Shown here: piece after piece, positions 24,715 through 56,811 of the stretch
How the letters are laid out: each line of letters starts with the position of its first letter
Position numbering within the stretch: position 1 is the first letter of the stretch
Assembly (NCBI GenBank): GCA_963745405.1
Contig: CAVUWY010000002.1
Location: 1,045,013 to 1,109,012 of the forward strand
Length of the DNA stretch: 64,000 nucleotides
Source: an uncultured Chloroflexia bacterium
GTDB taxonomy: Bacteria > Chloroflexota > Limnocylindria > Limnocylindrales > CSP1-4
Direction: 5' to 3'
Notes under the pieces: model-generated
Databases searched by the model: none
Told to the model about the DNA's origin: nothing
What the model saw: the letters and a program-made list of their open reading frames with translations, nothing else
Program-made: the position numbers and the translations under genes

Positions 24715-24720
24715 CCGGCC

Positions 24721-29631: not shown

Positions 29632-30720
29632 ATGACCCACGTCTTCGTCGCGCCCCACCCCGACGACGTCGCGCTCTCGTGTGGCGGGCTCATCGCGGGG
29701 CTTCGCGAGCTCGGCCAGAACGTGACGATCCTCACCGTCTTCTCGGGCGACGGCGAGATGACGAACCTCAGTCCGTATCAGCGCGAGGCACTCGGCTTCG
29801 GGTCGAAGGCCATCTGGCCGAATACCGAGGCGTTCAACCGGACGAGCATCCGCTCCGACTACCCGGCTCATCCCGACCCCGACGACACGCTGCCGCCGTG
29901 GCAGGCGACGACCGACCGCCTCGACGCGACTCAGTCGTTCGCGGACGCCGAGGCGAAGCGGTTCTGGCAGCGCTCGTCGTGGTACCGGCGGGCGGAGATC
30001 CACAACGTCCCGCTGGGCGGCGAGCCACTCATCGACGAGCAGCCGAACCAGGGCGCCGTCATGACCGAGGAGCTCATGGACGCTGCCGAGGCCGGCGACC
30101 CCACGGCCGCCCGGCGCCTCGAGGACGAGCGGTTCGCCCTGTTCGCAGAGGCGTCCCTCGTCCTGCTCGACCTGCCGGACGCGGTCTTCCGCGGCTACGA
30201 GTCCGACGACGAGCTCCTCGGCAGCCCGCGGATCGACGACGATCCGGCGCTCGAGGCCGTCCGTCGCGAGATCGTCCGCCTCGAGCCGCAGAAGGTCTAC
30301 CTGCCGCTCGGCGTCGGCGACCACGTCGACCACCAGCTCATCCGGCGGGTGGGGATGTCGCTCCTGGCCGACGGACGGCGCTGGGTGATGCCGGGGCCCG
30401 AGTGGGCGGGCATCGTGACGTTCTACGAGGACTTCCCGTACTCGTGGTGGCGCGGCTTCTCGAAGCTCGACGACCTGCCGGCCGAGGCCCGGGCCGAGAT
30501 CCCGGACGGCGTCTCGCTGTGGGCCGAGTACGCCGACATCATCGACCAGGTCGAGCGCAAGATCACCGGTATCAGCCTCTACGAGAGTCAGCTCGATCGC
30601 CTCTTCGGGGGCCGCCTCAAGATGGCCGATGCGACCCGCCGCGAGGCCCGCCGCATCGCCGAGCTCGGCGGCCTCGAGGGCTCGTTCGCCGAGCGCTACT
30701 GGACCTCGGTCCGCGTCTGA
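29632..30720 (+). CDS. PIG-L family deacetylase (LmbE-like) with a large insertion
   Basis: VFVAPHPDDVALSCGG at the N-terminus and GDHVDHQ later. Listed 362-aa ORF. Confidence 0.85.
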   Translation: MTHVFVAPHPDDVALSCGGLIAGLRELGQNVTILTVFSGDGEMTNLSPYQREALGFGSKAIWPNTEAFNRTSIRSDYPAHPDPDDTLPPWQATTDRLDATQSFADAEAKRFWQRSSWYRRAEIHNVPLGGEPLIDEQPNQGAVMTEELMDAAEAGDPTAARRLEDERFALFAEASLVLLDLPDAVFRGYESDDELLGSPRIDDDPALEAVRREIVRLEPQKVYLPLGVGDHVDHQLIRRVGMSLLADGRRWVMPGPEWAGIVTFYEDFPYSWWRGFSKLDDLPAEARAEIPDGVSLWAEYADIIDQVERKITGISLYESQLDRLFGGRLKMADATRREARRIAELGGLEGSFAERYWTSVRV

Positions 30721-30790
30721 CCCTCCGGCCCGGCCGGGCCAGGACCAACGGGGCGGGGCCGGACTCGACGGCCATTCCTATCATCGTGCG

Positions 30791-31684
30791 GTGGTGATCG
30801 ACTCGTCGAGGGCGTTCGGCCTCCGACTGCGTGCGCTCTCGATCCGGTATCGGAACCCGCTCCTGCTCGGCCTGTCGATCGGCGGGGTGATCCTCACCGT
30901 CGGCCTGTTCCGCATCGCGGGCACGCCCGGCTTCGACCTGTACGCCTACTGGGCGGTCGATCCGCTCGATCCGTACGGCGCGACGGGCGGCTTCGGAGCC
31001 TTCCACTACAGCCCGGTCCTCGCTGTGGCGTTCCTGCCGCTCAAGCTCCTGCCGTGGCCGGCCGTCTACTGGGTCTGGTTCGCCATCCTCGTGGGCGTCC
31101 TCATCTGGCTCACCCGCTGGTGGGCGCTCGCGTCGCTCCTCTTCGTGCCGGTCGCCCTCGAGCTGTACGAGGGCAACATCCACCTCCTCATCGCCGCCGC
31201 GGTCGTCCTCGGGCTGCGCTGGCCGGCTGCCTGGTCGTTCCTCCTCCTGACCAAGATCACCCCCGGCGTGACCGTCGTCTGGTTCGCCGTCCGCGGGGAG
31301 TGGCGCTCATTGCTTGTGACGCTCGCGTTCACGGCCACCTTCGTCGCCGCGAGCTTCATCGCGATGCCCGAGGTGTGGCGCTCGTGGATCGCCCACCTCA
31401 CGGTCGCCGAGCCCGTCACGACGCCCAATCAGATCCCGATCCCCCTCCTCGTGCGCCTCCCGATCGCCGTCCTCGTCATCGCCTGGGGCGCCCGCACGAA
31501 TCGGCCGTGGACCCTCGCCGTCGGGACGACGCTGGCCCTCCCCGTCGTCTGGTTCCACGGCCTGGCGGTGCTCATCGCGATCCCGGCCCTGCTCGATGCC
31601 CGCCGGACGCGCGTCGCTCCGGTCGCCGCCTGGTTCGGCGGCCTCGCCTCCCGGCCGAAGGTCAGGCGGCCAGACCCTGCTTGA
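30791..31684 (+). CDS. GT87/DUF2029-like GT-C membrane glycosyltransferase
   Basis: A polytopic protein and close paralogue of 47043..47933 (LLFVPVALELYEGNIHLLIAAAVVLGLRWPAAWSFLLLTKITPG vs LLFQPVVASIALGNIEILIAAAIVAGFRWPATWSFVLLSKVTPG). The GTG start is uncertain. Confidence 0.8.
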   Translation: MVIDSSRAFGLRLRALSIRYRNPLLLGLSIGGVILTVGLFRIAGTPGFDLYAYWAVDPLDPYGATGGFGAFHYSPVLAVAFLPLKLLPWPAVYWVWFAILVGVLIWLTRWWALASLLFVPVALELYEGNIHLLIAAAVVLGLRWPAAWSFLLLTKITPGVTVVWFAVRGEWRSLLVTLAFTATFVAASFIAMPEVWRSWIAHLTVAEPVTTPNQIPIPLLVRLPIAVLVIAWGARTNRPWTLAVGTTLALPVVWFHGLAVLIAIPALLDARRTRVAPVAAWFGGLASRPKVRRPDPA

Positions 31685-32648
31685 CCGGGCCGTCGAGCGG
31701 CGCCTCCTTGGCGGCGGCCGGCTGGCGGTGCTCGGAGCCCGGGGCGACCAGGGCGATCAGGAGCGCCGGCGTCTGGAATCCGATCGCCGGTGAACCGAGG
31801 ACCATCGTGAGGACGGCCACCCGGTACGACAGGGCCGCGTTCTTCCGCGTCAGGAGGATCGCGATGCAGCCGACGACTTCGGCGATCGTGGTGGCCGCGC
31901 CGATATGGGTCATCCCACTCAGGCTCCACGGCTGGGGAACGGCGGAGCGGAGCACGTCGAGGTAGGCGAGGTGAGCGTCGATCCCGGCGCCCGCGATACC
32001 GACGACCAGGCCGACGACGACGGCTCCGGCGCACCAGGCGAGCGCCCGCCAGTTCCGCTGGCCGATGAGCCAGAAGACGAACACCGCCGGGGTGATCTTG
32101 AGGATGACCATGAGCCCGACGAGCGCACCGATCCACGGCCGGTCCCGGTAGACCCAGCAGATGACCATCCCGGCGACGAAGAACCCGGCGATGTTGCCGA
32201 TCGTCAGCTGGAGGCCGATCCCGATGGAGCAGGCAGCGACGATCGCGATAGCCGCCGGCCGGAGCCCGCGGAGCACGTAGAACACCGCCCACAACATCGC
32301 GATCGCGTCGGCGACGAGAAAGATCACAATGCCGCTCATGGCGGGCAGGGCCGCGAGCGGCCGCCACAGCACGCCGATGAGGGGCGGATAGAGGAGCGGC
32401 GCCGTCCAGTACGGTGGATTGGCGGCGACGTACCGATCGCCCGCCTGCAGCGCGTACAGGAGGTGGCCGGCATTCAGCCGCTCACCGGCGGCGAGATACG
32501 TGATCGCGTCGTAGCCGACCTGGGCGAACAGCCCCGTGACGAGAACCCAGATCATGACCGCGGCGAGAGCCAGGACCGCCTCGACCCGCAGGATCCGGAC
32601 GCGGGATCGATCTCTCGGCTCGGGCCCAGCGCCGGCGGCAGCGGTCAT
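31662..32648 (-). CDS. GT87/DUF2029-like GT-C membrane glycosyltransferase
   Basis: Carries DAITYLAAGERLNAGHLLYA, NPPYWTAPLLYPP and a KITPAVF segment. The start is the ATG at 32648, 11 nt after the epimerase stop. Confidence 0.8.
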   Translation of the reverse strand: MTAAAGAGPEPRDRSRVRILRVEAVLALAAVMIWVLVTGLFAQVGYDAITYLAAGERLNAGHLLYALQAGDRYVAANPPYWTAPLLYPPLIGVLWRPLAALPAMSGIVIFLVADAIAMLWAVFYVLRGLRPAAIAIVAACSIGIGLQLTIGNIAGFFVAGMVICWVYRDRPWIGALVGLMVILKITPAVFVFWLIGQRNWRALAWCAGAVVVGLVVGIAGAGIDAHLAYLDVLRSAVPQPWSLSGMTHIGAATTIAEVVGCIAILLTRKNAALSYRVAVLTMVLGSPAIGFQTPALLIALVAPGSEHRQPAAAKEAPLDGPVKQGLAA

Positions 32649-32659
32649 GAGATCGTGTC

Positions 32660-33670
32660 TCAGGTCGCCGTCGCGGCGGGCGCTGCCTCGGCTCCGACGG
32701 TCGTTCCCGTTGCTGCGAAGCCGGCCTCGAGGAACCACTCCGCCGTCCGGTCGAGACCGCGCTGCATCCGGACCTGGGGGACCCAGTGGAGCATCCGCCG
32801 GGCCTTCTCGATGTTCACGACACGGCGCCGGATGTTGTCGATGTCGCGGCGATCGAGGCTCTTGACCGTGATCTCCCGGTCCGTCGCGATGCCGATCATC
32901 TTCGCCAGGTCGGCGACGGACGTCTCGATGCCTGTCCCGACGTTGAAGACCTCGCCCTCCGCCCGCGGGTGGATCGCGGCGAGGAGCGTCGCCTCGACCG
33001 CGTCGTCGATGTAGGTGAAGTCGCGGGTCTGCAGGCCGTCGCCGTGGATCTGGAGCGGCTCCCCGGCGTAGGCGCTGGTGAGGAACTTGCTGACGACCCC
33101 GCAGTACGGATTGTCGGGGCGCTGGCCCGGTCCGAAGATGTTCGAGTAGCGGACGACCGATATCGGCAGGCCGTAGCTCTCGTAGAAGGCGAGGCAGTAG
33201 TGCTCGCCGCCGAGCTTGCTCACGGCGTACGGGCTGAGCGGCACGACGCCGTCGTCCTCGTTGATGGGGATCGAGCGCGGGTTGCCGTAGATCGACGTCG
33301 ACGAGCTGTAGACGACCCGCTCCGTGCGCGCCTCGCGGGCCGCCATCAGCACGTTGAGCGTGCCGCCGATGTTGGTCGCGAAGTCGTCCCGCGGGTTCTT
33401 CGTGCTGGCGATGATGTTGCGGGCGGCGAGGTGGAAGACGAGCGAGTTGGCGGTGACGAGCTCCTTGACGAGCGCCTCGTCGTTGACCGAGCCCTGGACG
33501 AACTGGGCGGCGGCCGGGATCGTCTCCGCAAGGCCGGTGAACAGGTCGTCGAGGACGGTGACCTTCGCGCCCGCGTCGACGAGCCGCCGAACCACCGCGC
33601 CGCCGACGAAGCCCGCCCCACCCGTGACGAGGATCCGCCGGCCGCCGAACGAGCGTTCCATCGACATCAT
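32660..33670 (-). CDS. NAD-dependent sugar epimerase/dehydratase (extended SDR)
   Basis: ILVTGGAGFVGG (GxxGxxG) and YAVSKLGGE (YxxxK). The ATG at 33670 forms an ATGA overlap with the restored GT2 stop. It is listed as the C-terminal part of a 619-aa fusion ORF. Confidence 0.88.
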   Translation of the reverse strand: MMSMERSFGGRRILVTGGAGFVGGAVVRRLVDAGAKVTVLDDLFTGLAETIPAAAQFVQGSVNDEALVKELVTANSLVFHLAARNIIASTKNPRDDFATNIGGTLNVLMAAREARTERVVYSSSTSIYGNPRSIPINEDDGVVPLSPYAVSKLGGEHYCLAFYESYGLPISVVRYSNIFGPGQRPDNPYCGVVSKFLTSAYAGEPLQIHGDGLQTRDFTYIDDAVEATLLAAIHPRAEGEVFNVGTGIETSVADLAKMIGIATDREITVKSLDRRDIDNIRRRVVNIEKARRMLHWVPQVRMQRGLDRTAEWFLEAGFAATGTTVGAEAAPAATAT

Positions 33671-34405
33671 CGCTTCACCCCGGTGCGGAGGAGGATGGCC
33701 GGCCGGAAGAGCCGCCACCAGTCGCGGACGCCGCGCATCTTCGTGTAGCCCTCCTTGGCGTGATAGACCACCGTGCACGGGTACTCGATGAGCCGGTAAC
33801 CGCGCCGGATCGCCTTGTACAGCACGTACGGCTCGAGGTCGTAGCTCGTCGAGCCAGGCCTGGCCGATGTCGATCTTGGGGTCGTCGAGGATGCTCGCCC
33901 GGAAGACCCGGAAGCCGTTCGTGGCGTCGGTCACCCGGCGGAAGGCGAGGACGCTGAAGACGGCCGAGTAGAGCCGCGTCCCGAAGCTCCGGCCGCCGGT
34001 CGCGCCGACGACCGCGCCTCCCCGCATCCAGCGGGAACCCTGGACGTAGTCCGCGTCCGCGGCGAGCAGCGCGTCGAACGCCCCGACCAGCTCGGCGGGG
34101 ACGTGCTGGTCGTCGCCGGAGAGGAGGGCGAGGTACGGCCGGCCGCGGTTCATCCCCGCGTACCAGCCGTCGCGGATGGCCGCCCCGACGCCGCCGCGCA
34201 CTTCGTGGCGGATGACGAGGGCGGCACCGTGGGCCCGGGCCTCGTCGCCGGTGCCGTCGGTCGAGCCGTCGTCGACGACGATCGCCTCGAAGCGCCCGTC
34301 GCGGGGCAGCTTGTCGAGGACGCGGCCGATCTTGCCGGCCTCGTTGAGAGCCGGGATGACGACGGCGACGATCGGTTCGGGATGTTCAGAGGCGGGCGTG
34401 GTCAA
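33667..34405 (-). pseudogene. GT2 polyprenyl-phosphate-sugar synthase-like glycosyltransferase with +1 frame disruption
   Basis: VAVVIPALNE and VVDDGSTDGT are followed up to ...IDIGQAWLDE. An extra base at about 33844 then throws out the conserved tail YDLEPYVLYKAIRRGYRLIEYPCTVVYHAKEGYTKMRGVRDWWRLFRP...KR-stop (33669-33667). As sequenced, the N-terminal part reads through into the epimerase frame. The start (TTG 34405 or ATG 34519) is uncertain. Confidence 0.75.
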
Positions 34406-34527: not shown

Positions 34528-35522
34528 ATGGACGCCGCTGCGCGACAGCGCCTGCTTTCGGTCGCCCTCGTGGCGATCGCCTTCGGACTGCTCGCGGTGA
34601 CGCTCGCGGTCTACTTCACCCGTGGATTCATCCCCGGCGATGCGCTCGTCTACCTCGGTGCCGGCGAACGTCTCAACGCCGGCCATCAGCTCTATGCGCT
34701 CTCGCCCGGCGACCGCTACGTCGGGGCCAATCCGCCGTACTGGACGGTGCCGACGCTGTCGCCACCGTTCATGGGGGTGCTGTTCCGGCCGCTGGCCCTG
34801 CTGCCGCCCGACCTCGGTGCGTACGTGTGGTGGGTCGGCACGATCGAGCGCCATCGCGCTGACGCTCGTCCTGCTCGTCCGGCGGGCGCCGATCCGCACG
34901 AGCGTCGCCGTGATCCTGCTCGGCATCCCGCTGACGTACGAGATCGGCGTCGGTAACGTCAACGCCTTCATCCTCGCCGGGGCGGTCGGCATCTGGTGGG
35001 CCTCGACCCGCGGGCCACGAGCGGGCGGCCGGCGTCATCGCCGCCTTCCTCGTCATGGTCAAGCTCTGGCCGATCGCCCTCGCCTGGTGGCTCGTCACCC
35101 AGCGACGATGGGAGTCGTCCAGGCGGGCTCGTCGCCGGCGTCGTCCTCGTCGGCGATCTCCGTGCTCGGCGCGGGCCTCGACGCCCACCTCACCTACCTC
35201 CAGGTGATCCGCGACACGACGTCGATCGGGACGAGCGTCCTCAGCGTGGCCGGCATCGCCCGTTACGTCGGCGTGCCGGAGTCGATCGCGGCGCTCCTGC
35301 CGTGGGTCGTCTTCGTCGGCGGGTGCGCCCTCGCCTGGGTGTTCCGCGACCGACCCGGCCGTCAGCTACTCGTGCGCGATCGTCGCGATGACCCTCGGCT
35401 CATCGGTCGTGAACATCAACTCGTACGCGTTGCTCCTGGCGACGCTGGCGCCCGCCGCGTGGCCGGCACCGAAGGCCATTCGCTCATCTCAGCCGATGGG
35501 GTCGCCCGCTCTGGCAACGTGA
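34528..35522 (+). pseudogene. GT87/DUF2029-like glycosyltransferase with at least five frame disruptions
   Basis: Recognisable GT87 segments alternate between frames: DALVYLGAGERLNAGHQLYA...WWVGT, then AIALTLVLLVRR...GIWWA, then AAGVIAAFLVMVKLWPIALAWWLVTQRRWE, then GGLVAGVVLVG, then ISVLGAGLDAHLTYLQV...AWVFRDRPG, then AVSYSCAIVAMTLGSSVVNINSYALLLATLAP, ending at TGA 35520-35522. Confidence 0.75.
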
Positions 35523-35680: not shown

Positions 35681-36631
35681 TTGCCGGTCCCAGCGCGTGG
35701 GGGACGGCGTCAGCGGCTGGCCGACGGCCAGCTGGGAAGAGCTGCGGCACTCCTGGCCGTCTTTGTCGCAGCACTTGCCCTTGGGCTCCTTGCCGCATGC
35801 AGCTGGGTGCAGTTCACCCATCCGGCGATCGATGCCAACGGCCTCCCGTACCCGCCCGACGCTCTGACCTACCTCGCCGCCGGGGAGCGCCTGAACGCAG
35901 GTCACGCGCTCTACAGACTCGCGCCGGGCGACCGGCCGGTATGGATCAACCCGCCGTACTGGACCGTACCGCTCCTGTCGCCGCCGCTCATCGCGGTCGT
36001 GTGGCGGCCGCTTGCCCTCATCGGCTCGGCGGCGGTGTACGGCTGGTGGGCAGCGGGGATCCTGGCCGTCCTCACCGCGCTAGTCGTGCTCATGCGCCGC
36101 CGGCCCGCCTCGGTCGGGGTCCTCGTCGCGCTTCTCAGCCTGCCGCTCGCGATCGAGCTGTACACGTCGAACCTGAACTCAGTCATCCTCGCCGCCGCCG
36201 TGCTGACGTGGATCCTCTGGCGTCGCGATCTCGTGGGCCCGGCCGCGGCGTTGGTGGTCCTTCTTGCCGCCCTCAAGGTCCTTCCGGTCTTCCTCGTTCT
36301 GTGGGTTCTCGCGGTCTCATGGCGTCGGGCGATCTGGCCGGTATTACTGGCCGCGGCGGTACTGCTCGCGATAGAGCTCCTGGGGGCCGGCCTCGAAGCG
36401 CACCTCGAGTACCTCCGCATCCTCCTCTCGACGGCCGGCGGCGGGGCGACGAGCCTGAGTCTCGCCGGGGCCACGGGGGTTCGGGGCCTGCCGATGCTCG
36501 CGGCGATATGCGCCACAGTGGCCATCGTCGTGCTCCGACGCTGGCCGGGGCTTTCCTTCTCGATCGCGGTCGCCGCCATGGCCGTTGTGACACCGAGCGT
36601 CTACTGGAACACGTTCACGGCTGGTCGCTGA
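35681..36631 (+). CDS. GT87/DUF2029-like GT-C membrane glycosyltransferase
   Basis: Listed 316-aa ORF starting at a TTG preceded by AGGGAGA. It carries DALTYLAAGERLNAGHALYR, NPPYWTVPLLSPP and AALKVLPVF. Confidence 0.75.
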   Translation: MPVPARGGRRQRLADGQLGRAAALLAVFVAALALGLLAACSWVQFTHPAIDANGLPYPPDALTYLAAGERLNAGHALYRLAPGDRPVWINPPYWTVPLLSPPLIAVVWRPLALIGSAAVYGWWAAGILAVLTALVVLMRRRPASVGVLVALLSLPLAIELYTSNLNSVILAAAVLTWILWRRDLVGPAAALVVLLAALKVLPVFLVLWVLAVSWRRAIWPVLLAAAVLLAIELLGAGLEAHLEYLRILLSTAGGGATSLSLAGATGVRGLPMLAAICATVAIVVLRRWPGLSFSIAVAAMAVVTPSVYWNTFTAGR

Positions 36632-36789
36632 CTCAGCATCGCATGGGCTCTGCCGGATGCGGTGCTCGCTCGACCCGCTGTTCCCGGTGGGTGAGCGTGC
36701 GCCCTCCGTGCAGATCGTTCCCGAGGCGCCCACCGTGAGGTCGGCCCTGCCAACGCTGCCAAGTCCACAGTCATCAGCCGCGGGACGGC

Positions 36790-37030
36790 TCAGCTCGCAA
36801 CGGCCTCCCTGAAGCGGGCCATATGGGCGCTGGCGTCGGAGGCACATCGGTCCGCGGCCTCCTCTCGTCTCTCGATCCCACTGATCGCCTGCTACGGGCG
36901 TTCAGCGCCGTCGTTGCAGTCAGCATCCAACGCACGAGTGCGCTGAGACCTCGGCCCGGCGGACAGCGCCGGGGTCGAGCCAACGGCACCAGAGATCGAG
37001 TCCTGGAACAGAATTGAATCGATAGGCCAT
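36790..37030 (-). pseudogene. remnant of the 3' end of a GT4 glycosyltransferase gene
   Basis: The end reads ...HMARFREAVAS-stop versus ...RIARLSEAVAS-stop in the intact GT4 (38670..). At the DNA level tcagctcgcaacggcctccctgaagcgggc compares with tcagctcgcgacggcctcgctgaggcgggc. The upstream part (FQDSISGAVG vs IEDGVTGLLV) lies in another frame. Confidence 0.45.
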
Positions 37031-37060
37031 CTGGCGACGTCGACGTAGTACCTCCGTCCG

Positions 37061-37260
37061 ATGCGCCCGGTCCGGCTCGCGATGGCTGTTCTGGTCGGTC
37101 TGGCCACGCTCACAAGCTGGTGGCCGCTGAGTTGGGTCAACCTCGACGGCGACTGGATGGTGGCAGCCTCGCGCGAATTCCTGGCCGGTGGCGATCCGTA
37201 CTCCGTACCCGGCTACCTCTATTCCCCGCTCGCTCCGATCCTCACCATCCCTCTGGCGAG
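37061..37260 (+). pseudogene. N-terminal fragment of a GT87/DUF2029-like gene
   Basis: MRPVRLAMAVLVGLATLTSWW...DWMVAASREFLAGGDPYSVPGYLYSPLAPILTIPLA, after which the frame degenerates. Confidence 0.45.
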
Positions 37261-37438
37261 TCGGCGGCCGTTGGCACCCGGTCGCAGGACAGGCTCGACT
37301 CGACGACTCGGGACGACTGGCGCAGACCGGTACGGCCTCGCCGCTGCATTGGCGCTGTCCGCCGATCGACGTCCGACGTGCTCGATCCTGGCCGATCAAT
37401 CACGTCCCAGTCGCCGGCCCGAGCTAGGCGATGACCGG

Positions 37439-39872: not shown

Positions 39873-39876
39873 CTGG

Positions 39877-43633: not shown

Positions 43634-43705
43634 CGAGGAAGGGTAGCCGGTCGGGGCCCGGCGTCGGCGGCGCGCCCACCGCCGCTTCCGCCGCGGCCGC
43701 GGCGG

Positions 43706-49242: not shown

Positions 49243-50429
49243 CCCGGTCGGGTCGCGGGGATCCCGGGGCTCGCGGCGGCGGTCGGAGCCGTCGCCCGCG
49301 GTCGGCGCTCGGCCGTGAGGATCGGCGCGATGAGCCCGATGAACATGATCGGCGGATAGGTCGCCGGGCCGAGCCACGGCAGGAGCGGCAGGGCGATCGC
49401 CCACCAGTGACCTCGCTCGAGGAGGAGGGCCACCGGGATGAGGAGGAGCATCGCGTAATGCTCCCAGAGAAGCGGCGAGACGAGCTGGCTGCCGACGACC
49501 GTCGTCACGTACGAGGTGACCGGGTCCGCCCGCCACCAGGCGTAGAGGACGACGACGACCGTGGCGACGACGCCGAGCCACTGGACCGCGGTCGCCACGC
49601 CGAGCTCGACGCCCGCCCCGTAGAGGAGCGCGCCGAGGGTGAAGTTGTGCGGCGTCGTGACGGGAGCGCTGACCCGGCCGAGGATGGCCACGTAGTCGTT
49701 CCACGTCCCGGGACCGGTCACGATCGTGGTCGCCACCGCCGCGACGGCAAGGACGACGATCCCGATGACGGCTGCCCGGTAGCGCCGGGTCACGACGGCC
49801 CAGCCGAACAGCAGCGCCGGCTGGACCTTCACGATCGTCCCGAACGCCATCGCGACCCCCAGCGGACCCGGCCGGTCGCGCCAACGCCAGCCGGCGGCGA
49901 AGGAGAGGAACAGGAGCGGCCCGACCTGGCCGAGCTTGACCGAGTAGAGGTACGGCCAGCAGATGCCCGCCAGGAGGAGGACCGTCCAGCGGACGCTCGG
50001 GCGGACCGGGAGGAGAGCGCAGCCGAGGGCGAACGCGGCGGCGAGGACGACCGTCCAGACCATCGGCCCGCTCCCTGCCGGCAGCCACGTGAACGGGATC
50101 ATGAGGACGGCGAACGGCGGCGGATAGAGGAAGATCGCGAACCCGCCGGCGACGTCGACCGCCGGGTCGTATAACGGCTGCCCGGCCAACAGGCGGTTCG
50201 CCGCCTGGACGTACGCCTGGAAGTCGTAGCCGAGGGTGTCGCGAGCCGCCCAGGCGATCGCCGCCGTCCCGCCGATGAAGACGAGGAGGGCGACGATCGG
50301 GAGCGCCGCCCGGGCCAGCCGGACGGCCGGCGACGGGTCGGCAGGCGACGGGTCGGCGGCCGATGCGGAAGCGGGTGGCGCCGCCGGGGCCGTCCCGTCG
50401 ACCTCGGCCGCGGGACCGCCGGCGGTCAT
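49239..50429 (-). CDS. GT87/DUF2029-like GT-C membrane glycosyltransferase
   Basis: The ATG at 50429 overlaps the GT2 stop (ATGA). It carries DFQAYVQAANRLLAGQPLYD, FLYPPPFAVL and VKVQPALLF. Confidence 0.8.
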   Translation of the reverse strand: MTAGGPAAEVDGTAPAAPPASASAADPSPADPSPAVRLARAALPIVALLVFIGGTAAIAWAARDTLGYDFQAYVQAANRLLAGQPLYDPAVDVAGGFAIFLYPPPFAVLMIPFTWLPAGSGPMVWTVVLAAAFALGCALLPVRPSVRWTVLLLAGICWPYLYSVKLGQVGPLLFLSFAAGWRWRDRPGPLGVAMAFGTIVKVQPALLFGWAVVTRRYRAAVIGIVVLAVAAVATTIVTGPGTWNDYVAILGRVSAPVTTPHNFTLGALLYGAGVELGVATAVQWLGVVATVVVVLYAWWRADPVTSYVTTVVGSQLVSPLLWEHYAMLLLIPVALLLERGHWWAIALPLLPWLGPATYPPIMFIGLIAPILTAERRPRATAPTAAASPGIPATRPG

Positions 50430-51253
50430 CGATCGAGGCCGGGCCGGGGATCCACTGCGGCCCGCCGCATCCGGCGATGGAGCAACGGGATGCGGATGAC
50501 GTCGAAGCCGACCCGGAGGGCAAGGCCCGGCGAGGCCCGCATGCGCGATCCGCGGCGATCGGTCCAGCGGATCGGCACGACGGCGATCCGATAGCCCCGC
50601 CGCCGGGCGAGGTAGATGAGCTCGACGTCGAACACGATGCTCGTGATCCGCTGGTCGGCGAACAGGTCGTGAGCGGCGGCGCCGGTGAACCCCTTGAAGC
50701 CACACTGGGTGTCCTGGACGTCGCCGACGACCCACAGGCTGGCGAAGGCATGGAACGCCCGGCCGAGCAGGCGGCGGTAGAGCGGCTGCGAGCCGCGCAT
50801 GTCGGAACCGTCCGGCTGGATGCGGCTGCCGAGCGCGACGTCGTGGTCGACGAGGGCCTCGACGATGAGCGGGATCTGGTCCGGCGGCGTCGCCATGTCG
50901 GCGTCGGCGAAGACGATGAGCTCGGACGTCGAGGCCAGCATCCCCGCCCGGACCGCCGCCCCCTTGCCGCCGTGAGGGACGCTGAGGAGGGCGAGCTGGG
51001 GCGGGTCCCGCTGTCCGTCGCCCCCCGCCACCGCCTCGGGACGAGCCTGGACGAGGGCGGCCGTGTCGTCGGCGCTGCCGTCGTCGACGACGAGGACGTG
51101 GATGCTCTCGGGGAGTCGCCCGGCACCCGGAGCTCCGTCGCGGGCGAGCTGGCCGCGACGGCGAAGGTAGCCGAAGAGCTCGTCGAGGGCGGGGCCGATC
51201 CGCTCCGATTCGTTGTACGCGGGCAGGACGATCGTGAGCGTCCGCGCTTCCAT
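50426..51253 (-). CDS. GT2 polyprenyl-phosphate-sugar synthase-like glycosyltransferase
   Basis: The start is the ATG at 51253. Motifs LTIVLPAYNES, VVDDGSADDT, FADADMATP and QCGFKGF are present. Confidence 0.88.
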   Translation of the reverse strand: MEARTLTIVLPAYNESERIGPALDELFGYLRRRGQLARDGAPGAGRLPESIHVLVVDDGSADDTAALVQARPEAVAGGDGQRDPPQLALLSVPHGGKGAAVRAGMLASTSELIVFADADMATPPDQIPLIVEALVDHDVALGSRIQPDGSDMRGSQPLYRRLLGRAFHAFASLWVVGDVQDTQCGFKGFTGAAAHDLFADQRITSIVFDVELIYLARRRGYRIAVVPIRWTDRRGSRMRASPGLALRVGFDVIRIPLLHRRMRRAAVDPRPGLDR

Positions 51254-51341: not shown

Positions 51342-52181
51342 ATGCAGTCGCCCTCGGACCTCGACGCGACACTCGGCGGGCCGTCGGAGGCGGCCTTCGA
51401 CCGGGGCCGATTCGTCCGCCGCCTGGCCGTCGCCGGCTCGTTCGCCGTCATCGCCGTCCAGGTCGCCCTCTTCGCCTGGGGCTGGATCCTCGACCACGAT
51501 CGGATCCCCCTCGGCCTCGACTGGCTCGGCTACCGGGCCGGCTTCGAGCGCTTCCTCGCGACCGGCTCCCCGTACGCCCCGTTCGAGCTGGCCGGATCGT
51601 TCACGCCCCAGCACCTCGACTTCATCCACCCGCCGAACTTCCTCGTCCTCGTCGCGCCGTTCGCGGTCCTCCCCCATCCGATCGACTTCATCCTGTGGGA
51701 CGCCGTCCCGATCGCGATCTTCGTGTACCTCCTCCGTCACCTCGCCTGGTGGGGCTGGCCGCTCGTCGCGATCCTCTCGACGACGAACTCGCTCCAGTAC
51801 CCGATCCTCAACGGCAACAGCTCGCTCTGGATGTGCGCTGCGTTCGGGCTCGGCATCCGGGTCGGCTGGTCGGCCGGGCTGCTGGCGATGAAGCCGACCC
51901 TCCTGCCACTCGCCTTCGTCGGCCTGCGCCGACCGGTACCCGCCCTGGTCCTGGCGATCGTGCCGATCGTGTTGACCCTGCCCCTGTTCCCGGACTACCT
52001 GACGGTGATCCGCAACATGGAGGGGATCCCGCTCTCGTACTCCCTGAGCAACTACTCGCTCATCGCCCTGGCGGCGCTGCCGTGGTTCGTCGAGTGGGTC
52101 GAGCGGCGCCGGCTGGCCGGCGGCCTCAGCCTTCGGCGGGGGTCGACGCGAGCGGGACTGGGGATCGCCCGACCGTCCTGA
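51342..52181 (+). CDS. short GT87/DUF2029-like polytopic membrane protein
   Basis: Listed 279-aa ORF with LDWLGYRAGFERFLATGSPYAP and LLAMKPTLLPLAFV. Its 3' end overlaps the convergent gene by 56 nt. Confidence 0.65.
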   Translation: MQSPSDLDATLGGPSEAAFDRGRFVRRLAVAGSFAVIAVQVALFAWGWILDHDRIPLGLDWLGYRAGFERFLATGSPYAPFELAGSFTPQHLDFIHPPNFLVLVAPFAVLPHPIDFILWDAVPIAIFVYLLRHLAWWGWPLVAILSTTNSLQYPILNGNSSLWMCAAFGLGIRVGWSAGLLAMKPTLLPLAFVGLRRPVPALVLAIVPIVLTLPLFPDYLTVIRNMEGIPLSYSLSNYSLIALAALPWFVEWVERRRLAGGLSLRRGSTRAGLGIARPS

Positions 52182-53391
52182 CCGGGACGGCCGCGACCGC
52201 GGCGACGACGAGCCCGACCGCAAGCCACAGGATCACCGGCGCGGCGATGGCCAGGCCGGCGACCACGAGGGCGACCGCGAGGAGGCCGCCGACGAGTGCC
52301 GCCCGCTCGGTGCCGTGAGCCGCCACTCCTGCCCACACGGCGAAGGGCACGAGCGCGACCGGGTAGTGGAACCAGGTGATCGGCAGGACCACGAGGGACA
52401 GGACCACGGCGATCGCGAGTGACGTCGCGGGCGGCCGTGCCCAGCGGGCGGCGATCGCGATCCCTGCCAGTGCCCCGACCGCGAAGACCGGGGCGAGTCG
52501 GCTGGCGAGCGACGGGTCGCCGAGCAGGAGGGCGAGCTGGCTGGCCGGTCCGATGTTCAGCGCTGAGACGAGGTCGACGCCGCCGCCCGCCCGGAGCACG
52601 CCGACGTAGTCCTGCCATGGGCCGATGCCCCAGACGACGAGGCTCGCCCCGACCACCAGGGCCAGTGCCGCGACCGCGGCGACGAGGCTCGTCCATGCGG
52701 CCGGCCACCGACCGGCATCGACCGCGGCGTCGGCGCCCCTGCCGCTGCGCCGCAGGCTCAGCCCGGCGATGGCGAGCCACAGGAGGAGCGCCCCCGGCTG
52801 GAGCTTGGCGACGGTCACGAGGCCGAGGGCGATGCCGCCGCCGACCCGCCAGCGCGACGAGCCGCCGAGGATCGAGACGAGGACGGCGCCGTAGGCGAGC
52901 GGATACCAGGCGTCGACGTTGCCGAACAGGAGGGCGATGGCGAACGGATAGATGAACGGGGCGAGGGCGAGGGTCGGGACGACGACGTCGACGGCGCGGA
53001 GCCGGCCGATGCCCGCCAATCCCATGGCCACGGCCCCGAGACCGAGCGTCGCCAGGAGGCCCATCGCTACCAGTACGACCGCGTCATCGAAGCCGCCCAG
53101 CAGCGAGGCCGCCTGGGCCACCGGCGGCGGGTACGAATAGAAGAGGCTCTCGACCTGGGTACCGCCGCCGACCGCCCCGGCGAGGTAGGGGCTCTGGCCG
53201 GCGGCGACCCGTCGTCCGGCGTCGAGGATCAGGGTCAGGTCGAACCCGGCGTGCGGCGGCTGCTGGGCGAGGAGTGTCGCGGCGAGCAGGATCAGCCCCA
53301 CCCAACCGGTGACGCCGACGACCGTCCAGACGAGCAGGCGGAAGCGGCGATCGGCGAAGGGACGGAGGAATTGGGCAGCCATCCGGGCCAT
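52126..53391 (-). CDS. GT87/DUF2029-like GT-C membrane glycosyltransferase
   Basis: Listed 421-aa ORF with FDLTLILDAGRRVAAGQSPY, FYSYPPPVA and TVAKLQPGALLLW. Confidence 0.78.
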   Translation of the reverse strand: MARMAAQFLRPFADRRFRLLVWTVVGVTGWVGLILLAATLLAQQPPHAGFDLTLILDAGRRVAAGQSPYLAGAVGGGTQVESLFYSYPPPVAQAASLLGGFDDAVVLVAMGLLATLGLGAVAMGLAGIGRLRAVDVVVPTLALAPFIYPFAIALLFGNVDAWYPLAYGAVLVSILGGSSRWRVGGGIALGLVTVAKLQPGALLLWLAIAGLSLRRSGRGADAAVDAGRWPAAWTSLVAAVAALALVVGASLVVWGIGPWQDYVGVLRAGGGVDLVSALNIGPASQLALLLGDPSLASRLAPVFAVGALAGIAIAARWARPPATSLAIAVVLSLVVLPITWFHYPVALVPFAVWAGVAAHGTERAALVGGLLAVALVVAGLAIAAPVILWLAVGLVVAAVAAVPVRTVGRSPVPLASTPAEG

Positions 53392-53497
53392 GCTAGACGC
53401 CCGTCGGGGCCATCGACGGGCGGTACTCGTCGCGCCTGGAGATGGCCAATTCGTACCGGTCGGAGGGCCTGATACCCGGTGCTAAGCTGCACCGGCC

Positions 53498-55153
53498 GTG
53501 CGTACCCCCCTGCTGCTTTTCGCGTACGCGCTGGTCGTCCGGGCGATCCTCATCGCGCTCTATCCGGACCCCGCCTACCCCGATTCCTATTACTACGTCG
53601 ACGTCGCGCGGGCCCTCCACGCGGGCCAGGGATTCAACGTCGACTTCATCTGGGCCTTCGTCGAGACGGGCGGCAAGCTGCCCGCCGATCCCCACCTGCC
53701 CATCCCGAGCAACGCCCACTGGCTGCCGCTCGCCTCGATCGTCCAGGTGCCCTTCCTGGCGATCTTCGGGACCTCGCCGGTGGCCTCGCAGATCCCGTTC
53801 GCGATCATCGGCGCGACGGTCGCCCCTCTGACCTGGGCGATCGCCAACGACGCGGGCGCGCGCCGCTCGGTCGCCATCGGGGCGGCGCTCATGACGGCCA
53901 TCCCGGCCGCCTCGACCGTCTTCATGGGCCAGCCCGACAACTTCTCGCTCTACCAGCCGATCGGGGCGGCGGCGCTGTGGATGGGCGCCCGCGCCCTGCG
54001 CGGGGATCGGCGGGCCTTCGCCCTCGGCGGTCTCCTCGTGGGCCTCGCCTCGCTCGCCCGCAACGATGGCGTCCTCATCGGCCTCGCCCTGGCCATCGTC
54101 TTCTTCTGGGACCGCTGGCGGGCCTGGCGGGAGCGGCAAGCCGGCGGCGACCGCCGGCCGGTGATCGGCTGGGGTCAGGCTGTCGCCTGCTTCGGCCTGT
54201 TCCTCGTCGCCGTCGGACCGTGGTGGATCCGCCAGCTGGCAGTCTTCGGCAGCATCTCGCCCTCGACGTCGTCGGGCCGGATCCTCTTCATCCGGACGAT
54301 CACGGACATGAACAGCATCACCACCCCGGCGACGCTCCAGAGCTTCCTCGGCCAGGGCATCGGGCCGCTCCTCGAGAGCCGGATCCTCGGCTTCGTCGCG
54401 GCCGTCGGCAACTACGTGATCATCGTCCTGTCGTTCGTGCTCACCCCATTCCTCTTCATCGGGGCCTGGGCCCGGCGTCGGTCGATCGATTACCGGGTCT
54501 TCTTCATCTATTCGGCTCTCCTGTTCGCCGCGGCCGGCCTCTTCTTCGCCATCCACGTCCCCCTCGGGATGTTCCTCCACTCGGCGGTCGCCCTCGTCCC
54601 CCACACGTACATCCTCGTCCTCGAGGGTGTCGTGGCCGCGGTCGCCTGGATGGCCGCCCGCCGCCCGAAGTGGAACCAGGACGAGGCGACCCGCTTCTTC
54701 CTCGGCGCCACGGTCGGAGTGACGATCCTCACCGGCGTGCTCGGCACGTGGAAGGTCCAGGAGGAGTGGGGCAAGGAGCGCCACGACCGCCAGGAGCTGA
54801 ACGCGGCGATGAACCGGCTCGGCATCGGCATGAACGAGCTCGTCATGAGCGGCGACGCGTCGGGCACGAAGTACTTCACCGGGCGCGGCGGCGTCGTCAC
54901 CGTCAGCGACCCGATCGACGTGGTCGGGCAGGTCGGGGCGGCCTACGGCATCCGCTGGCTCGTCCTCGAGCGCGACCACATCGTCGACTCGCTCGGACCG
55001 GTCCTCGGGGGGAAGTCGCGGCCGTCGTGGATCGGGCCGCCGGTCTGGTCGCTCGACGAGACGCCGCCCGAGAACGCCGACGACACCTACCCTGACATCG
55101 CCCTCTACCCGACCTGCTTCGAGCCGGGTGACACACGGTGCGCGGCCCCGTGA
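53498..55153 (+). CDS. GT-C fold membrane glycosyltransferase (PMT_2/ArnT, GT39/GT83-like)
   Basis: Listed 551-aa ORF with an N-terminal ...YPDSYYYVDVARALHAGQGF... loop, many TM segments and a soluble C-terminal domain. It is a paralogue of the next gene. Confidence 0.82.
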   Translation: MRTPLLLFAYALVVRAILIALYPDPAYPDSYYYVDVARALHAGQGFNVDFIWAFVETGGKLPADPHLPIPSNAHWLPLASIVQVPFLAIFGTSPVASQIPFAIIGATVAPLTWAIANDAGARRSVAIGAALMTAIPAASTVFMGQPDNFSLYQPIGAAALWMGARALRGDRRAFALGGLLVGLASLARNDGVLIGLALAIVFFWDRWRAWRERQAGGDRRPVIGWGQAVACFGLFLVAVGPWWIRQLAVFGSISPSTSSGRILFIRTITDMNSITTPATLQSFLGQGIGPLLESRILGFVAAVGNYVIIVLSFVLTPFLFIGAWARRRSIDYRVFFIYSALLFAAAGLFFAIHVPLGMFLHSAVALVPHTYILVLEGVVAAVAWMAARRPKWNQDEATRFFLGATVGVTILTGVLGTWKVQEEWGKERHDRQELNAAMNRLGIGMNELVMSGDASGTKYFTGRGGVVTVSDPIDVVGQVGAAYGIRWLVLERDHIVDSLGPVLGGKSRPSWIGPPVWSLDETPPENADDTYPDIALYPTCFEPGDTRCAAP

Positions 55154-56811
55154 CCCGCCGCGAAGCGTGGCTGAGCGCCGGCGGGCTATTCCTCCTCGCC
55201 CTCGTGATCCGTTCGCTCATCGCCTCGACCATCCCGTTCCCGACGCCCGAGGACACTGCCTATTACTACGGTGTCGCCCGCAACGTCGTCGAGGGCCGCG
55301 GCCTCGTGTCCGACGCCATATGGAGCTACGGCACGCCGCCACTCGTCTTCCCCCGGCCGGCCTTCGAGGTCTGGCTGCCGCTGCCGACCCTGCTCGCGAT
55401 CATCCCGATGACGATCCTTGGCACGGGCTTCCACGCGGCCCAGGTGACGACCGTCATCCTCGGCTCGCTGGTCCCCGTCCTCGCCTGGCGGATCGCCGCC
55501 GATCTCGCCGTCGAACTCGAGATGCCGGTCGGGCGCGCCCGGACGCTTGCCGTCGGGTCGGGGGTGACGGCGGCCGTCTCCCTGCCGCTCCTCCTCCACG
55601 GCGTCCTGCCCGACTCGACGACGCCGTATACCGTCTTCTCCCTTGCCGCGTGCCTGCTCATGGTCCGCCTCATCCGGGAGCTGCGCGGCGCGCGGGCCCT
55701 CGACCGCCGCCTGATCGGTCTGGGCGTCCTCTTCGGCCTGGCGGCGCTGACCCGCAATGAAGTCGTCTGGCTCGGCCTGACCTGGGTCGCGGTCGCCTGG
55801 TGGGGTGCCCGCCGGATGTCGCCGTCGTGGCGATCGACCCTGCTCCGGCTCGTCGGGGTACCGGCTGTCGTGGGCCTGGCGATCCTCAGCCCGTGGCTCA
55901 TCCGCGACTGGATCGTCTTCGGAAGCCCGCTGCCGGGCCAGGCGGCGACCAACGCCCTGTCGATCACCGGCTTCGACATCTTCGCCTACGCCGATCCGCC
56001 GACCCTGTCGCGCTACCTCGCCCAGGGACCCGCCTTCCTGGTCTCGAGCCGGATCGACGGCTTGATCCACAACCTCTTCTCGGTCCTCCTCGTGCCGAGC
56101 TTCCCGGTCGGCCTCGTCGGCCTCGTCTCGCTCGTCGCGGTCCGCCGGGTCGGGACGGCCCGATCGCTGCGGCCGCTCGTCCTCCTGTCGGTACTCACGT
56201 TCACGGCGACGACCCTCCTCTTCCCGGTCGCGACGACCTGGGGGACGTTCCTCCACGCCTCGGGTCCGATCCAGGTCCTCCTCATCGTCGGCTGCCTGGC
56301 CGGCCTCGATGCGTTCATCGTCCGGGTCGGGGTGCTGCGGGGCTGGACGAAGCCGGTCGCCTGGCTCGGCCCGACTCTCACGGTCGCGACCTCGGTCCTG
56401 TTCAGCTTCGCGATCCTCGGCTACGCCCAGCAGTCCCGCGACGTGCAGGAGCGCTACGCCGCCCTCGGGCCGGCGCTGACCGCCGCCGGGCTGAGCCAGG
56501 ACGAGATCGACGCACCCGTCATCGCCGACTTCCCGATCTGGTACGCGGAAGGGATGCGCCACTCGTCGCTCGCGCTGCCCGATGAGCCGCCGTCCGACGT
56601 GATCTCCCTGGCCCAGCGATTCGGGGCCCGCCTCCTCGTGCTCAGCGCGGACGGCCACGGTAGCTGGCCGGCCGTGATCGACGCCGGTCCGACCGGCGCC
56701 GGCGGCCCGGCCGCGGCCTGTTTCCACGAGGTGCACCTGACGCCACCGGCCGATCCGGTCGCCCGCGACGCGCTGTCCGGCACCCGGGTATTCCGGATCG
56801 CCTGCTCGTGA
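55138..56811 (+). CDS. GT-C fold membrane glycosyltransferase (PMT_2/ArnT, GT39/GT83-like)
   Basis: Listed 557-aa ORF with ...PEDTAYYYGVARNVVEGRGL.... It overlaps the preceding paralogue by 16 nt. Confidence 0.82.
   Translation: MRGPVTRREAWLSAGGLFLLALVIRSLIASTIPFPTPEDTAYYYGVARNVVEGRGLVSDAIWSYGTPPLVFPRPAFEVWLPLPTLLAIIPMTILGTGFHAAQVTTVILGSLVPVLAWRIAADLAVELEMPVGRARTLAVGSGVTAAVSLPLLLHGVLPDSTTPYTVFSLAACLLMVRLIRELRGARALDRRLIGLGVLFGLAALTRNEVVWLGLTWVAVAWWGARRMSPSWRSTLLRLVGVPAVVGLAILSPWLIRDWIVFGSPLPGQAATNALSITGFDIFAYADPPTLSRYLAQGPAFLVSSRIDGLIHNLFSVLLVPSFPVGLVGLVSLVAVRRVGTARSLRPLVLLSVLTFTATTLLFPVATTWGTFLHASGPIQVLLIVGCLAGLDAFIVRVGVLRGWTKPVAWLGPTLTVATSVLFSFAILGYAQQSRDVQERYAALGPALTAAGLSQDEIDAPVIADFPIWYAEGMRHSSLALPDEPPSDVISLAQRFGARLLVLSADGHGSWPAVIDAGPTGAGGPAAACFHEVHLTPPADPVARDALSGTRVFRIACS

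Follow-up and report, generated by a model that had tools for sequence, protein, structure and literature searches.

Glycosyltransferases of the GT-C fold act outside the membrane on lipid-phosphate sugars that are made by GT2 synthases. In the mycobacterial and corynebacterial route from phosphatidylinositol mannosides (PIM) to lipomannan (LM) and lipoarabinomannan (LAM), the participating enzymes are the GT4 proteins PimA and PimB', the GT2 synthase Ppm1, and PimE, MptA/B/C and Rv2181. Other known systems are the three-component systems (GtrA/GtrB/GtrX; CsbB/GtcA/YfhO; a polyprenyl-phosphoribose synthase with a MATE protein and GT136), where an auxiliary epimerase diversifies the donor (PMC11127046). 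Here, we report the analysis of a locus that appears to follow a similar logic, at positions 29632-56811 (27,180 bp) of a 64,000-nt stretch of DNA, called the window below, from an uncultured Chloroflexota bacterium of the Candidatus (Ca.) Limnocylindria. The locus had previously been predicted to be a supercluster of GT-C membrane glycosyltransferases that assembles a complex extracytoplasmic glycan.

The interval holds 11 intact polytopic open reading frames (ORFs) of the GT-C type, which together occupy 12,495 bp, or 46% of it. They comprise seven GT87 genes, one PIG-V-like gene (g35), two PMT_2-like genes (g42 and g43) and one gene without a Pfam family (g37). With an outlying pair, g16 and g17, the window has 13 ORFs that are GT-C by Pfam, profile, structure or paralogy, and an acidic/aromatic motif is found directly after the first transmembrane (TM) helix in every one of them. 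The 11 intact ORFs of the original prediction are thus confirmed, as the HMM, profile and structure searches all place them in GT-C families. Profile-profile comparisons with hhalign loosely tie these families together: the g42/g43 family matches that of g35/g16 with 92.6% probability and, over 196 columns, that of g37 with 68% probability.

From family membership and synteny, we infer that the locus would assemble a glycoconjugate of the cell envelope, working by the logic of the mycobacterial PIM/LM/LAM pathway, and that the expected product would be a lipid-anchored heteroglycan, that is, a lipoglycan. We consider the chances of this proposal to be about even. The broader part of it, namely that a complex glycan is assembled outside the cytoplasm by GT-C enzymes, is supported by the conserved synteny and by the pairing of GT2 with GT-C genes described below.

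The GC content of the window is ca 71%, which fills raw ORF lists with shadow ORFs. Genes were therefore called with a model based on codon-position GC (GC1/2/3 ca 0.70/0.50/0.93; the GC3 model), and annotated with Pfam and NCBIfam. To obtain homologous loci, the g34 alignment was searched against genomes, one for each species; 586 loci were confirmed, of which 80 were kept (denoted by L and a number). Nearly all of these 80 are metagenome-assembled genomes (MAGs) labelled Ca. Limnocylindrales/Limnocylindria or Chloroflexota. The composition of the window is also in keeping with Ca. Limnocylindria. No tRNA genes were found in the window. Its features are collected in Table 1.

Table 1. Features of the window discussed in the text, with the assignment of each and its basis
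Feature	Position	Strand	Length (aa)	Assignment and basis
g08	6228-7322	+		DedA/VTT-domain membrane protein
g16	14255-15487	-		PIG-V-like; paralogue of g35 (blastp E 1e-14); no Pfam match
g17	15539-16801	+		g37 family; paralogue of g37 (blastp E 2e-38, 33% identity)
rplI-lexA-dnaB region	16877-20233			
Lower-GC island	20233-26500			GC 0.63-0.68 (ca 0.71 otherwise)
Dodecin gene	20871-21074			
Large island ORF	21160-24525		1121	AAA-ATPase + Trans_reg_C
c-di-GMP-II riboswitch	24756-24839	+		Rfam RF01786, 64.7 bits, E 4e-12
HD-GYP gene	25727-26476	+		HD-GYP-type (HD_5) phosphodiesterase
g25	26523-28682	+		DUF5317 + MFS
g26	29632-30720	+	362	PIG-L/LmbE-type de-N-acetylase with long insertion; Pfam PIG-L E 2.6e-15, N-terminal part only
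g27	30791-31684	+	297	Short GT87; Pfam GT87 51 bits; ORF open from 30629
g28	31662-32555	-	297	Short GT87; Pfam GT87 70.5 bits; ORF open to 32738
SDR gene	32660-33670	-	336	Short-chain dehydrogenase/reductase (SDR), NAD-dependent sugar epimerase/dehydratase; Pfam Epimerase E 1e-57; intact
Upstream GT2	33667-34405	-		PpgS/AglJ-like type, frameshifted; Pfam GT2, residues 15-174
GT87 pseudogene	34549-35450	+		g28/g30 type; tblastn, three high-scoring segment pairs in three frames; weak Pfam GT87
g30	35807-36631	+	274	Short GT87; Pfam GT87 41.9 bits; ORF open from 35681
GT87 remnant	37437-37735	-	ca 100	g40-like; tblastn E 2e-6 to 5e-12
g31	38670-39872	-	400	Cytoplasmic GT4, last core-operon gene; Pfam Glycos_transf_1 + Glyco_transf_4
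g32	39877-41139	-		Acetyltransf_6 (FemAB/CelD/Mig-14-like) acyl-/aminoacyl-transferase; Pfam PF13480 E 6.6e-32
g33	41246-43633	-	795	MFS-like membrane domain + C-terminal spermidine-synthase-like domain; Pfam MFS_1 + Spermine_synth
g34	43706-45874	-	722	7 TM + spermidine-synthase-fold domain + 7 TM; Pfam Spermine_synth
g35	45871-47046	-	391	PIG-V-like GT-C; Pfam Mannosyl_trans2 PF04188 32.3 bits (cut-off 22.4)
g36	47043-47912	-	289	Short GT87; Pfam GT87 52.5 bits
g37	48034-49242	-	402	GT-C-fold protein; AlphaFold + Foldseek; no family model
g38	49239-50429	-	396	Full-length core GT87; Pfam GT87 92.7 bits
g39	50426-51253	-	275	Soluble GT2, first core-operon gene; Pfam GT2
g40	51342-52181	+	279	Divergent short GT87-like; Pfam GT87 19.9 bits (cut-off 25)
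g41	52126-53391	-	421	GT87; Pfam GT87 33.3 bits
g42	53498-55153	+	551	PMT_2-type GT-C; Pfam PMT_2 PF13231 38.8 bits (cut-off 26.1)
g43	55138-56811	+	557	g42 paralogue; blastp 29% over 515 aa, E 5e-33
g44-g46	56898-59954	+		HisKA_3 kinase, LuxR/NarL-type response regulator, second HisKA_3 kinase; Pfam
Flp/Fap pilin genes	60224-61205	+	56 each	Three tandem near-identical genes (60224, 60618, 61035)
CpaB/RcpC + TadZ-like	61449-63795	+		CpaB/RcpC gene and receiver-ParA (TadZ-like) gene

The Pfam GT87 model (PF09594) has a gathering cut-off of 25 bits, and six of the seven ORFs (g27, g28, g30, g36, g38 and g41) exceed it with 33-93 bits. Judged by its sequence, g40, being below the cut-off, merits the label GT87-like only; it is 75% identical to a 261-aa gene in the equivalent position of the closest relative, L081. 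With a profile built from all seven, the sole match among 177,635 distinct PDB sequences is the mannosyltransferase PimE (9dm5; E 7e-15). The seven GT87/DUF2029-like genes that had been predicted were accordingly recovered, g40 with the reservation just mentioned.

The residues needed for catalysis in PimE are largely present. There, D58, which sits at the tip of the first juxtamembrane loop, is the catalytic base, and D58, Y62 and the phosphate-binding K195 are all essential (PMC12041525). The equivalent of D58 is an Asp in all seven proteins, and it is the only acidic residue that is invariant among them. Four residues after it, the Y62 equivalent is a Tyr in six of the seven and an Ile in g41, while the K195 equivalent, which is part of a K-x-x-P motif, is a Lys in six or seven of the seven. 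The Trp and His on the donor side (W319 and H321/H322 in PimE) are both retained only in g38, g27 and g41; g36 has the Trp alone, this region is altered in g28 and g30, and the short g40 lacks it. Two of the proteins, g38 and g28, also match the NCBIfam mannosyltransferase PRK13375 (E 2e-12 and 5e-10, respectively), in both cases below the cut-off.

The short GT87 genes are related to each other, with 46% identity between g27 and g36 and 39% between the paralogues g28 and g30. The close relatives confirm that the short length is native, their corresponding proteins having 261-331 aa. Thus, g36 is 76% identical to a 276-aa gene in the equivalent L081 position, and the homologue of g30 is a 331-aa GT87 of L081. 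The longer g41 has homologues at the equivalent position in both L081 and L083.

The single PIG-V-like gene that had been predicted is g35, which scores above the cut-off of PF04188. It carries the motif 'SWDGAFYLGIVRDGY' and matches the NCBIfam surface-glycopolymer family AZOBR_p60025 below the cut-off. For the profile of the g35/g16 family, the sole PDB match is a weak one, to GPI mannosyltransferase 1 (PIG-M; E 0.008).

For g37, no match was found in Pfam, in NCBIfam or, by sequence, in the PDB. It has 1,686 homologues, and the best 120 of these are without a Pfam domain and are named 'hypothetical', if at all. Of the homologues, 21 were aligned, and an AlphaFold2 model was obtained with a pLDDT of 82 and a pTM of 0.86. 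When this model was compared to the PDB with Foldseek, the best 30 matches were all of the GT-C fold, and include AftB (E 5.5e-4), PglB, Pmt4 (TM-score 0.55), AglB, ALG12 and STT3, and further AftD, ArnT, PimE, ALG3/9 and PIG-U. The gene had been called ArnT-like, but no ArnT/PMT HMM match was obtained, and ArnT comes behind AftB, PglB, Pmt4, AglB, ALG12 and STT3. Since ArnT ranks only 12th and 14th, with a TM-score of 0.45, the label can mean no more than generic GT-C, and we do not retain it. After TM1, g37 has the motif 'QFDAGRGDLFY' and g17 has 'DRQSLDYF', and D39 is near-invariant in the alignment of the family. On the strength of the predicted fold, g37 and g17 define a GT-C family that has neither a Pfam nor an NCBIfam model.

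The outlying pair, which the original prediction had described as PIG-V-like and ArnT-like, is borne out by the paralogy of g16 to g35 and of g17 to g37. In addition, g17 has a weak NCBIfam match to the putative glycosyltransferases LA_3751/LA_3752. The two genes lie between dinB and rplI, the latter being part of the rplI-lexA-dnaB region of the window. At a more distant locus (L078, 8678-13796), a g34 paralogue is found between rplI and dnaB.

We now turn to the two PMT_2-like genes. The prediction stands for g42, which is above the Pfam cut-off, while g43 has no Pfam match and is linked to the family by its clear paralogy to g42, with which it overlaps by 16 nt. Both proteins have an acidic motif in loop 1, which in g43 reads 'TPEDTAYYYG'. 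The profile of the g42/g43 family gave no match to PDB sequences, and single-sequence phmmer searches of the PDB with g37, g43, g38 and g42 gave nothing useful. The pair is followed by a two-component system, and the block of g41, g42-g43 and this system recurs in L010, L026, L034 and L067. L010, L026, L034 and L083 all have g43-g42 next to g44-g45-g46, with a response regulator that is 77-91% identical.

The membership of g42 in the PMT_2 family suggests an alternative, in which the PMT_2-like pair and the GT87 enzymes O-glycosylate proteins; the acceptors would be the Flp pilins, whose genes lie ca 3.4 kb downstream, or else an S-layer protein, lipoproteins or other secreted proteins. GT-C enzymes do glycosylate pilins in some bacteria, TfpW being an example, and three tandem Flp pilin genes followed by Tad genes are indeed present in the window. 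Moreover, the arrangement of g42/g43, the two-component system and the Flp pilins is conserved in L010 and L034. However, g42 and g43 match at most the broad PMT_2 family, no PMT (PF02366), PMT_4TMC or MIR domain being found in them by the Pfam scan, and the mature Flp pilins, of ca 38 aa, have no Ser/Thr-rich stretch. Furthermore, a lipid-linked primer is indicated by the presence of a GT4 and a FemAB-like enzyme in the core operon, and the substrates of the characterised GT87 enzymes are glycolipids and lipoglycans (PMC12041525). In view of this, we give protein glycosylation only a slim chance.

The lipoglycan proposal draws also on the genes that surround the GT-C enzymes. The nine genes from g39 to g31 share one strand and are tightly packed, either overlapping by 4 nt or separated by no more than 121 nt; they are called the core operon here. 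The soluble GT2 at its start, g39, has no predicted TM segment. Its best NCBIfam matches are the dolichyl-P-hexose transferase (DPhHxTase; 42 bits compared to a cut-off of 375), AglJ, ArnC and PpgS, all below their cut-offs. Wherever both genes are present in a locus, it immediately precedes g38 on the 5' side, and it can be regarded as a candidate polyprenyl-phosphate hexose synthase of the Ppm1/DPM1 type. The motifs 'DDGS' and 'DAD' are present in the GT2 proteins. For the GT4 at the end of the operon, g31, the best NCBIfam matches are stp2, BshA, MshA and GlcNAc-PG synthase, again below the cut-offs, and g32 adjoins it in every relative.

Two further genes of this kind lie outside the operon. 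The PIG-L-type protein g26 has the motif 'PHPDD' and later 'GDHVDH', and a full-length homologue with 64% identity adjoins the g34 homologue in L011. The sugar epimerase of the window is 88% identical to a separate epimerase gene of L081. Pfam therefore bears out the PIG-L, GT4, CelD/FemAB-like and SDR genes that had been predicted to feed the GT-C enzymes. As to the two GT2 genes that had been named as polyprenyl-phosphate-sugar synthases, g39 is intact, but the upstream one is frameshifted by a 1-nt insertion. The proposed pairing of such donor synthases with GT-C users holds, the best NCBIfam matches of the GT2 proteins being polyprenyl- or dolichyl-phosphate sugar synthases, although these are below the cut-offs.

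The arrangement is conserved in the relatives. In the closest two, L081 and L083, where g34 is 81% and 76% identical, the gene order is the same, as seen from gene calls made independently and from Pfam annotations that were precomputed. The core, which consists of g39(GT2)-g38(GT87)-g37-g33/g34-g32-g31(GT4), is present in 14 more distant loci. The identities in these loci are 68-78% for g39, 65-84% for g31, 49-68% for g37, 54-78% for g34, 38-79% for g33, 52-77% for g32 and 44-61% for g38. The short GT87 proteins have 30-57% identity, and are variable in copy number, order and position. A literature search gave nothing on this cluster, on an expansion of GT87/DUF2029 in Chloroflexota, on a Chloroflexota lipoglycan, on the cell envelope or glycosyltransferase clusters of Limnocylindria, or on a membrane spermidine synthase together with GT-C enzymes. 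Likewise, no relative was found in which this gene order is tied to a characterised polymer, the relatives all being uncultured MAGs.

Some of the relatives have genes that are absent from the window. These are an SDR/AMP-binding/LuxE/LuxC fatty-acyl reductase set in L083 (17421-21898), a sulfatase-superfamily protein, possibly LtaS/EptA-like, in L034 (12423-15556), proteins of 473-480 aa whose C-terminal part weakly matches a methyltransferase, with a score under the Pfam cut-off, in L008 (2833-4251) and L034, and a hexapeptide acetyltransferase in L081 (17838-19359).

In the middle of the cluster, 4.6 kb (41246-45874) are taken up by g33 and g34, two large membrane proteins that are no glycosyltransferases and that the original prediction had passed over. 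g33 passes the cut-off of the NCBIfam model for fused MFS/spermidine synthases (NF037959; 95.9 bits compared to 40). Of all proteins in the module, g34 is the best conserved, with more than 7,900 homologues, the best 120 of which are 63-81% identical. Its AlphaFold2 model (pLDDT 75) shows the SpeE fold in Foldseek, the matches 1uir, 3o4f and 1inl having E-values of 1e-8 to 1e-6.

In SpeE, the acidic residue of the GGG(D/E)G motif and the Asp residues of D-x-x-D-P have roles in the catalytic site. Relative to the Thermus thermophilus enzyme, GGGEG is changed to GAGSG in g34 and IIDLTDP to VFALPDS, that is, the acidic residue of the first motif is a Ser and the first Asp of the second is an Ala. 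The motifs VEID and YDDPR are retained, and a 'TDD(W/R)P' motif is found at the end of the domain in both g33 and g34. With the catalytic residues replaced and scores of 35-43 bits for the NCBIfam SpeE equivalogs, which have cut-offs of 250-260, g34 is no canonical aminopropyltransferase. The SpeE-like domains of the two proteins are acidic, and a simple positive-inside analysis places them outside the cytoplasm, a prediction in which we have low confidence. Outside the membrane, S-adenosylmethionine (SAM) and its decarboxylated form are unavailable.

Not all parts of the cluster are intact. The accessory arm at 33.7-38.7 kb begins with the upstream GT2, whose best NCBIfam GT2 match is PpgS (66 bits compared to a cut-off of 370). 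A tblastn search with the 245-aa GT2 of L081 finds it in two frames, aa 1-186 and then aa 187-245 at 91.5% identity, with the alternative frame reaching its stop at 33667. The DNA alignment to the closest relative shows one extra G near 33847. This insertion produces a spurious ORF of 581-619 aa that looks like a GT2-epimerase fusion. The 581-aa fusion (32660-34405) was considered and rejected, as L081 has two separate, overlapping genes here.

The two decayed GT87 loci of the original prediction were also found. The pseudogene at 34549-35450 aligns to an intact 365-aa homologue (L062_2959) with an E-value of 3e-59 and changes frame near 34846 and 35357. The other locus is the remnant at 37437-37735 (best E 5e-12), which is detected by the g40-like proteins of L008, L012, L067 and L081. 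It lies within a 2-kb stretch without a clean ORF (36631-38670), in which the frame plot shows a fragmented coding signal. Pfam found no GT87 on the ORFs of this stretch, and the remnant was seen solely by tblastn with the homologues of relatives. In the equivalent place, L081 has a 338-aa gene and a Hexapep gene, and no trace of either was found in the window.

In total, three frameshifts and one remnant occur within 33.8-37.7 kb, and the remaining window is clean. No homopolymer runs were found at the frameshift sites. Because all the shifts fall in a single 4-kb arm and not in such runs, real decay of the accessory arm is more likely than an error of sequencing or assembly. One could go further and argue that the locus is no functional unit at all, being either a graveyard of duplicated paralogues or the result of faulty gene calls or a faulty assembly, in a MAG whose high GC content creates many spurious ORFs. 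Against this stands the synteny as a strong counter-argument, the gene order being shared with L081 and L083, and the nine of the 11 intact GT-C ORFs that were compared with L081 having homologues there at 56-81% identity. In addition, the codon-position GC signature of real genes is seen in all 11 intact ORFs, the catalytic residues are kept, and the damage is limited to the one arm. We find this explanation scarcely credible.

From what has been established for GT-C enzymes and for GT2 polyprenyl-phosphate sugar synthases, a possible sequence of events for lipoglycan assembly can be formulated as follows. A small lipid-linked primer would be built at the inner membrane face by g31, the cytoplasmic GT4, possibly together with the FemAB/CelD-like g32. 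The GT2 g39 would charge polyprenyl phosphate with sugars from nucleotide sugars, and in relatives where these genes are intact, a second GT2, the SDR epimerase and the PIG-L de-N-acetylase would supply an amino-sugar donor. Primer and donors would then have to be flipped to the outer face, for which the MFS-type domain of g33 is the sole candidate encoded here. Outside the membrane, the conserved g38, g37 and g35 would lay the backbone, to which the variable short GT87 enzymes and the PMT_2-like pair would attach side chains. Finally, the adjacent NarL-type two-component system would control the g42/g43 block. The presence of a GT4 and an MFS domain in the core operon has parallels in PimA/PimB and in the LtaA-type MFS glycolipid flippase.

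Among the scanned ORFs of the window, Pfam gave no initiating phosphoglycosyltransferase (PGT), no Wzx/Wzy, no ABC exporter and no LCP ligase, and no small flippase of the GtrA/GtcA/ArnEF type was found in the window. With these components missing, a glycolipid-primed product that is polymerised by GT-C enzymes fits better than a classical O-antigen or exopolysaccharide locus.

It has to be pointed out that several observations weigh against the lipoglycan proposal. The missing small flippase is one of them, and to assign the flippase role to g33 instead is speculation. A PGT or an exporter encoded elsewhere in the genome could alter the picture. None of the GT2 and GT4 assignments reaches its curated NCBIfam cut-off, the accessory arm is decaying, and one of the two donor synthases is broken in this genome. 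Proteins like g34 also occur alone in most of the 80 loci, many of them in unrelated contexts, and the function of g33 and g34 may not be tied to the glycan. The host lineage, moreover, is uncultured.

The same set of missing components can be read in another way, namely that the window lacks the backbone machinery (PGT, polymerase and exporter) because it is encoded elsewhere, and that the locus is a stack of three-component GT2 and GT-C units whose sole role is to furnish a wall polymer or a peptidoglycan-linked polysaccharide with side-chain sugars. Pairs of GT2 and GT-C genes are the hallmark of such systems (PMC11127046). The variable GT87 genes would then provide antigenic or phage-receptor variation, and their changing copy number and order and the decay of copies are as expected for surface-variation genes. 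On the other hand, the cytoplasmic GT4, the FemAB-like transferase and the two large membrane proteins of the core would be superfluous for decoration, and the ratio of eleven GT-C genes to two GT2 donor synthases is far above that of the usual units. The flippase is a problem here too, as no donor flippase of the GtrA or MATE type was found. We rate decoration as possible, if somewhat unlikely. The statement in the original prediction that the product cannot be named from the sequence holds.

Outside the cluster, a number of neighbouring elements were observed. A c-di-GMP-II riboswitch lies ca 0.9 kb upstream of an HD-GYP-type phosphodiesterase gene that the GC3 caller missed, and g25 is located between this gene and the glycan cluster. 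The neighbourhood of the HD-GYP gene, g25, g26 and g34 recurs in L011. Through this adjacency, the envelope cluster may be linked to c-di-GMP. A lower-GC island with a weak codon-position GC signal (20233-26500) contains a dodecin gene and a large ORF with AAA-ATPase and Trans_reg_C domains, and may be recently acquired DNA. Some members of the DedA/VTT family are polyprenyl-phosphate translocases; g08, which belongs to this family, is 22 kb from the cluster.

Ca. Limnocylindria is, to our knowledge, a class without any cultured member. The Chloroflexota envelope is poorly understood. Soils and lakes harbour Ca. Limnocylindria in abundance, and the genomes of the class are small, with a median size of 2.39 Mb and a GC content of 68.9% (PMC10608941). 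That 13 GT-C genes are nevertheless found in ca 43 kb (14.3-56.8 kb) points to a dominant surface structure, which would shape permeability, recognition by phages and predators, and aggregation. So far, GT87 has been known chiefly for its part in making mycobacterial lipoglycans, and the findings extend it to a further phylum. The short GT87 form, the GT-C family without a Pfam model and the membrane proteins with a SpeE fold are targets for biochemistry, and the conserved core with its variable periphery can serve as a metagenome marker for envelope variation. One can also entertain a more far-reaching idea, that Ca. Limnocylindria independently uses a major GT-C-polymerised envelope lipoglycan or wall glycan of the mycobacterial style, in which the new g37/g17 family takes part and outward-facing SpeE-fold proteins, having lost catalytic residues of SpeE, serve to modify the glycan, set its chain length or export it, in a new step that does not depend on SAM. 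As a whole, we hold this to be unlikely.

The comparison with the known systems can now be drawn more closely. To the PMT (GT39) and ArnT (GT83) enzymes, the likeness is that g42 belongs to PMT_2, a family that groups ArnT-like and PMT-like GT-C enzymes, and that g42 and g43 have the acidic loop-1 motif; the two differ from them in the missing PMT, PMT_4TMC and MIR domains and in having no PDB match by sequence. The PpgS/Rv3779 galactosamine pathway and the Arn pathway for L-Ara4N resemble the arm at 29.6-36.6 kb, where modification by an SDR enzyme, loading by a GT2, deacylation by the PIG-L protein g26 and transfer by a GT-C enzyme would follow the same scheme. However, none of the scores comes near its equivalog cut-off (66 compared to 370 bits for PpgS), the GT-C partners are GT87 and not Rv3779 or ArnT, and the GT2 is frameshifted.

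With the three-component systems, the locus shares the charging of a lipid, GT-C transfer outside the membrane and an auxiliary epimerase. It differs in that no small or MATE flippase was found, that the GT-C genes far outnumber the synthases, and that the GT4 and other enzymes in the core operon suggest assembly de novo. SpeE is related to g34 by its fold (1uir, E 1e-8) and to g33 by the NF037959 match, with VEID and YDDPR kept, but in g34 the catalytic residues are replaced and the domain is inserted between 7+7 TM helices and predicted to be extracytoplasmic.

With PIM-LM-LAM synthesis, the locus has in common that a GT4 primes, that a soluble GT2 makes the donors and that a number of GT87/GT-C enzymes work at the outer side of the membrane. 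PimE is the one PDB match of the GT87 profile, and the equivalents of its D58, Y62 and K195 are conserved. In contrast to the mycobacterial pathway, no genes specific to phosphatidylinositol were identified in the window, four of the seven GT87 proteins have a short form of ca 275-350 aa, and the genes, which here belong to the phylum Chloroflexota, are clustered, whereas the mycobacterial ones are scattered. The g37 family, the SpeE-like membrane proteins and the FemAB-like enzyme come in addition. The parts of the locus are of familiar kinds, and its logic has precedents in known pathways; what is new is the lineage, the density of the genes, the short GT87 form, the GT-C family without a Pfam model and the association with SpeE-fold proteins.

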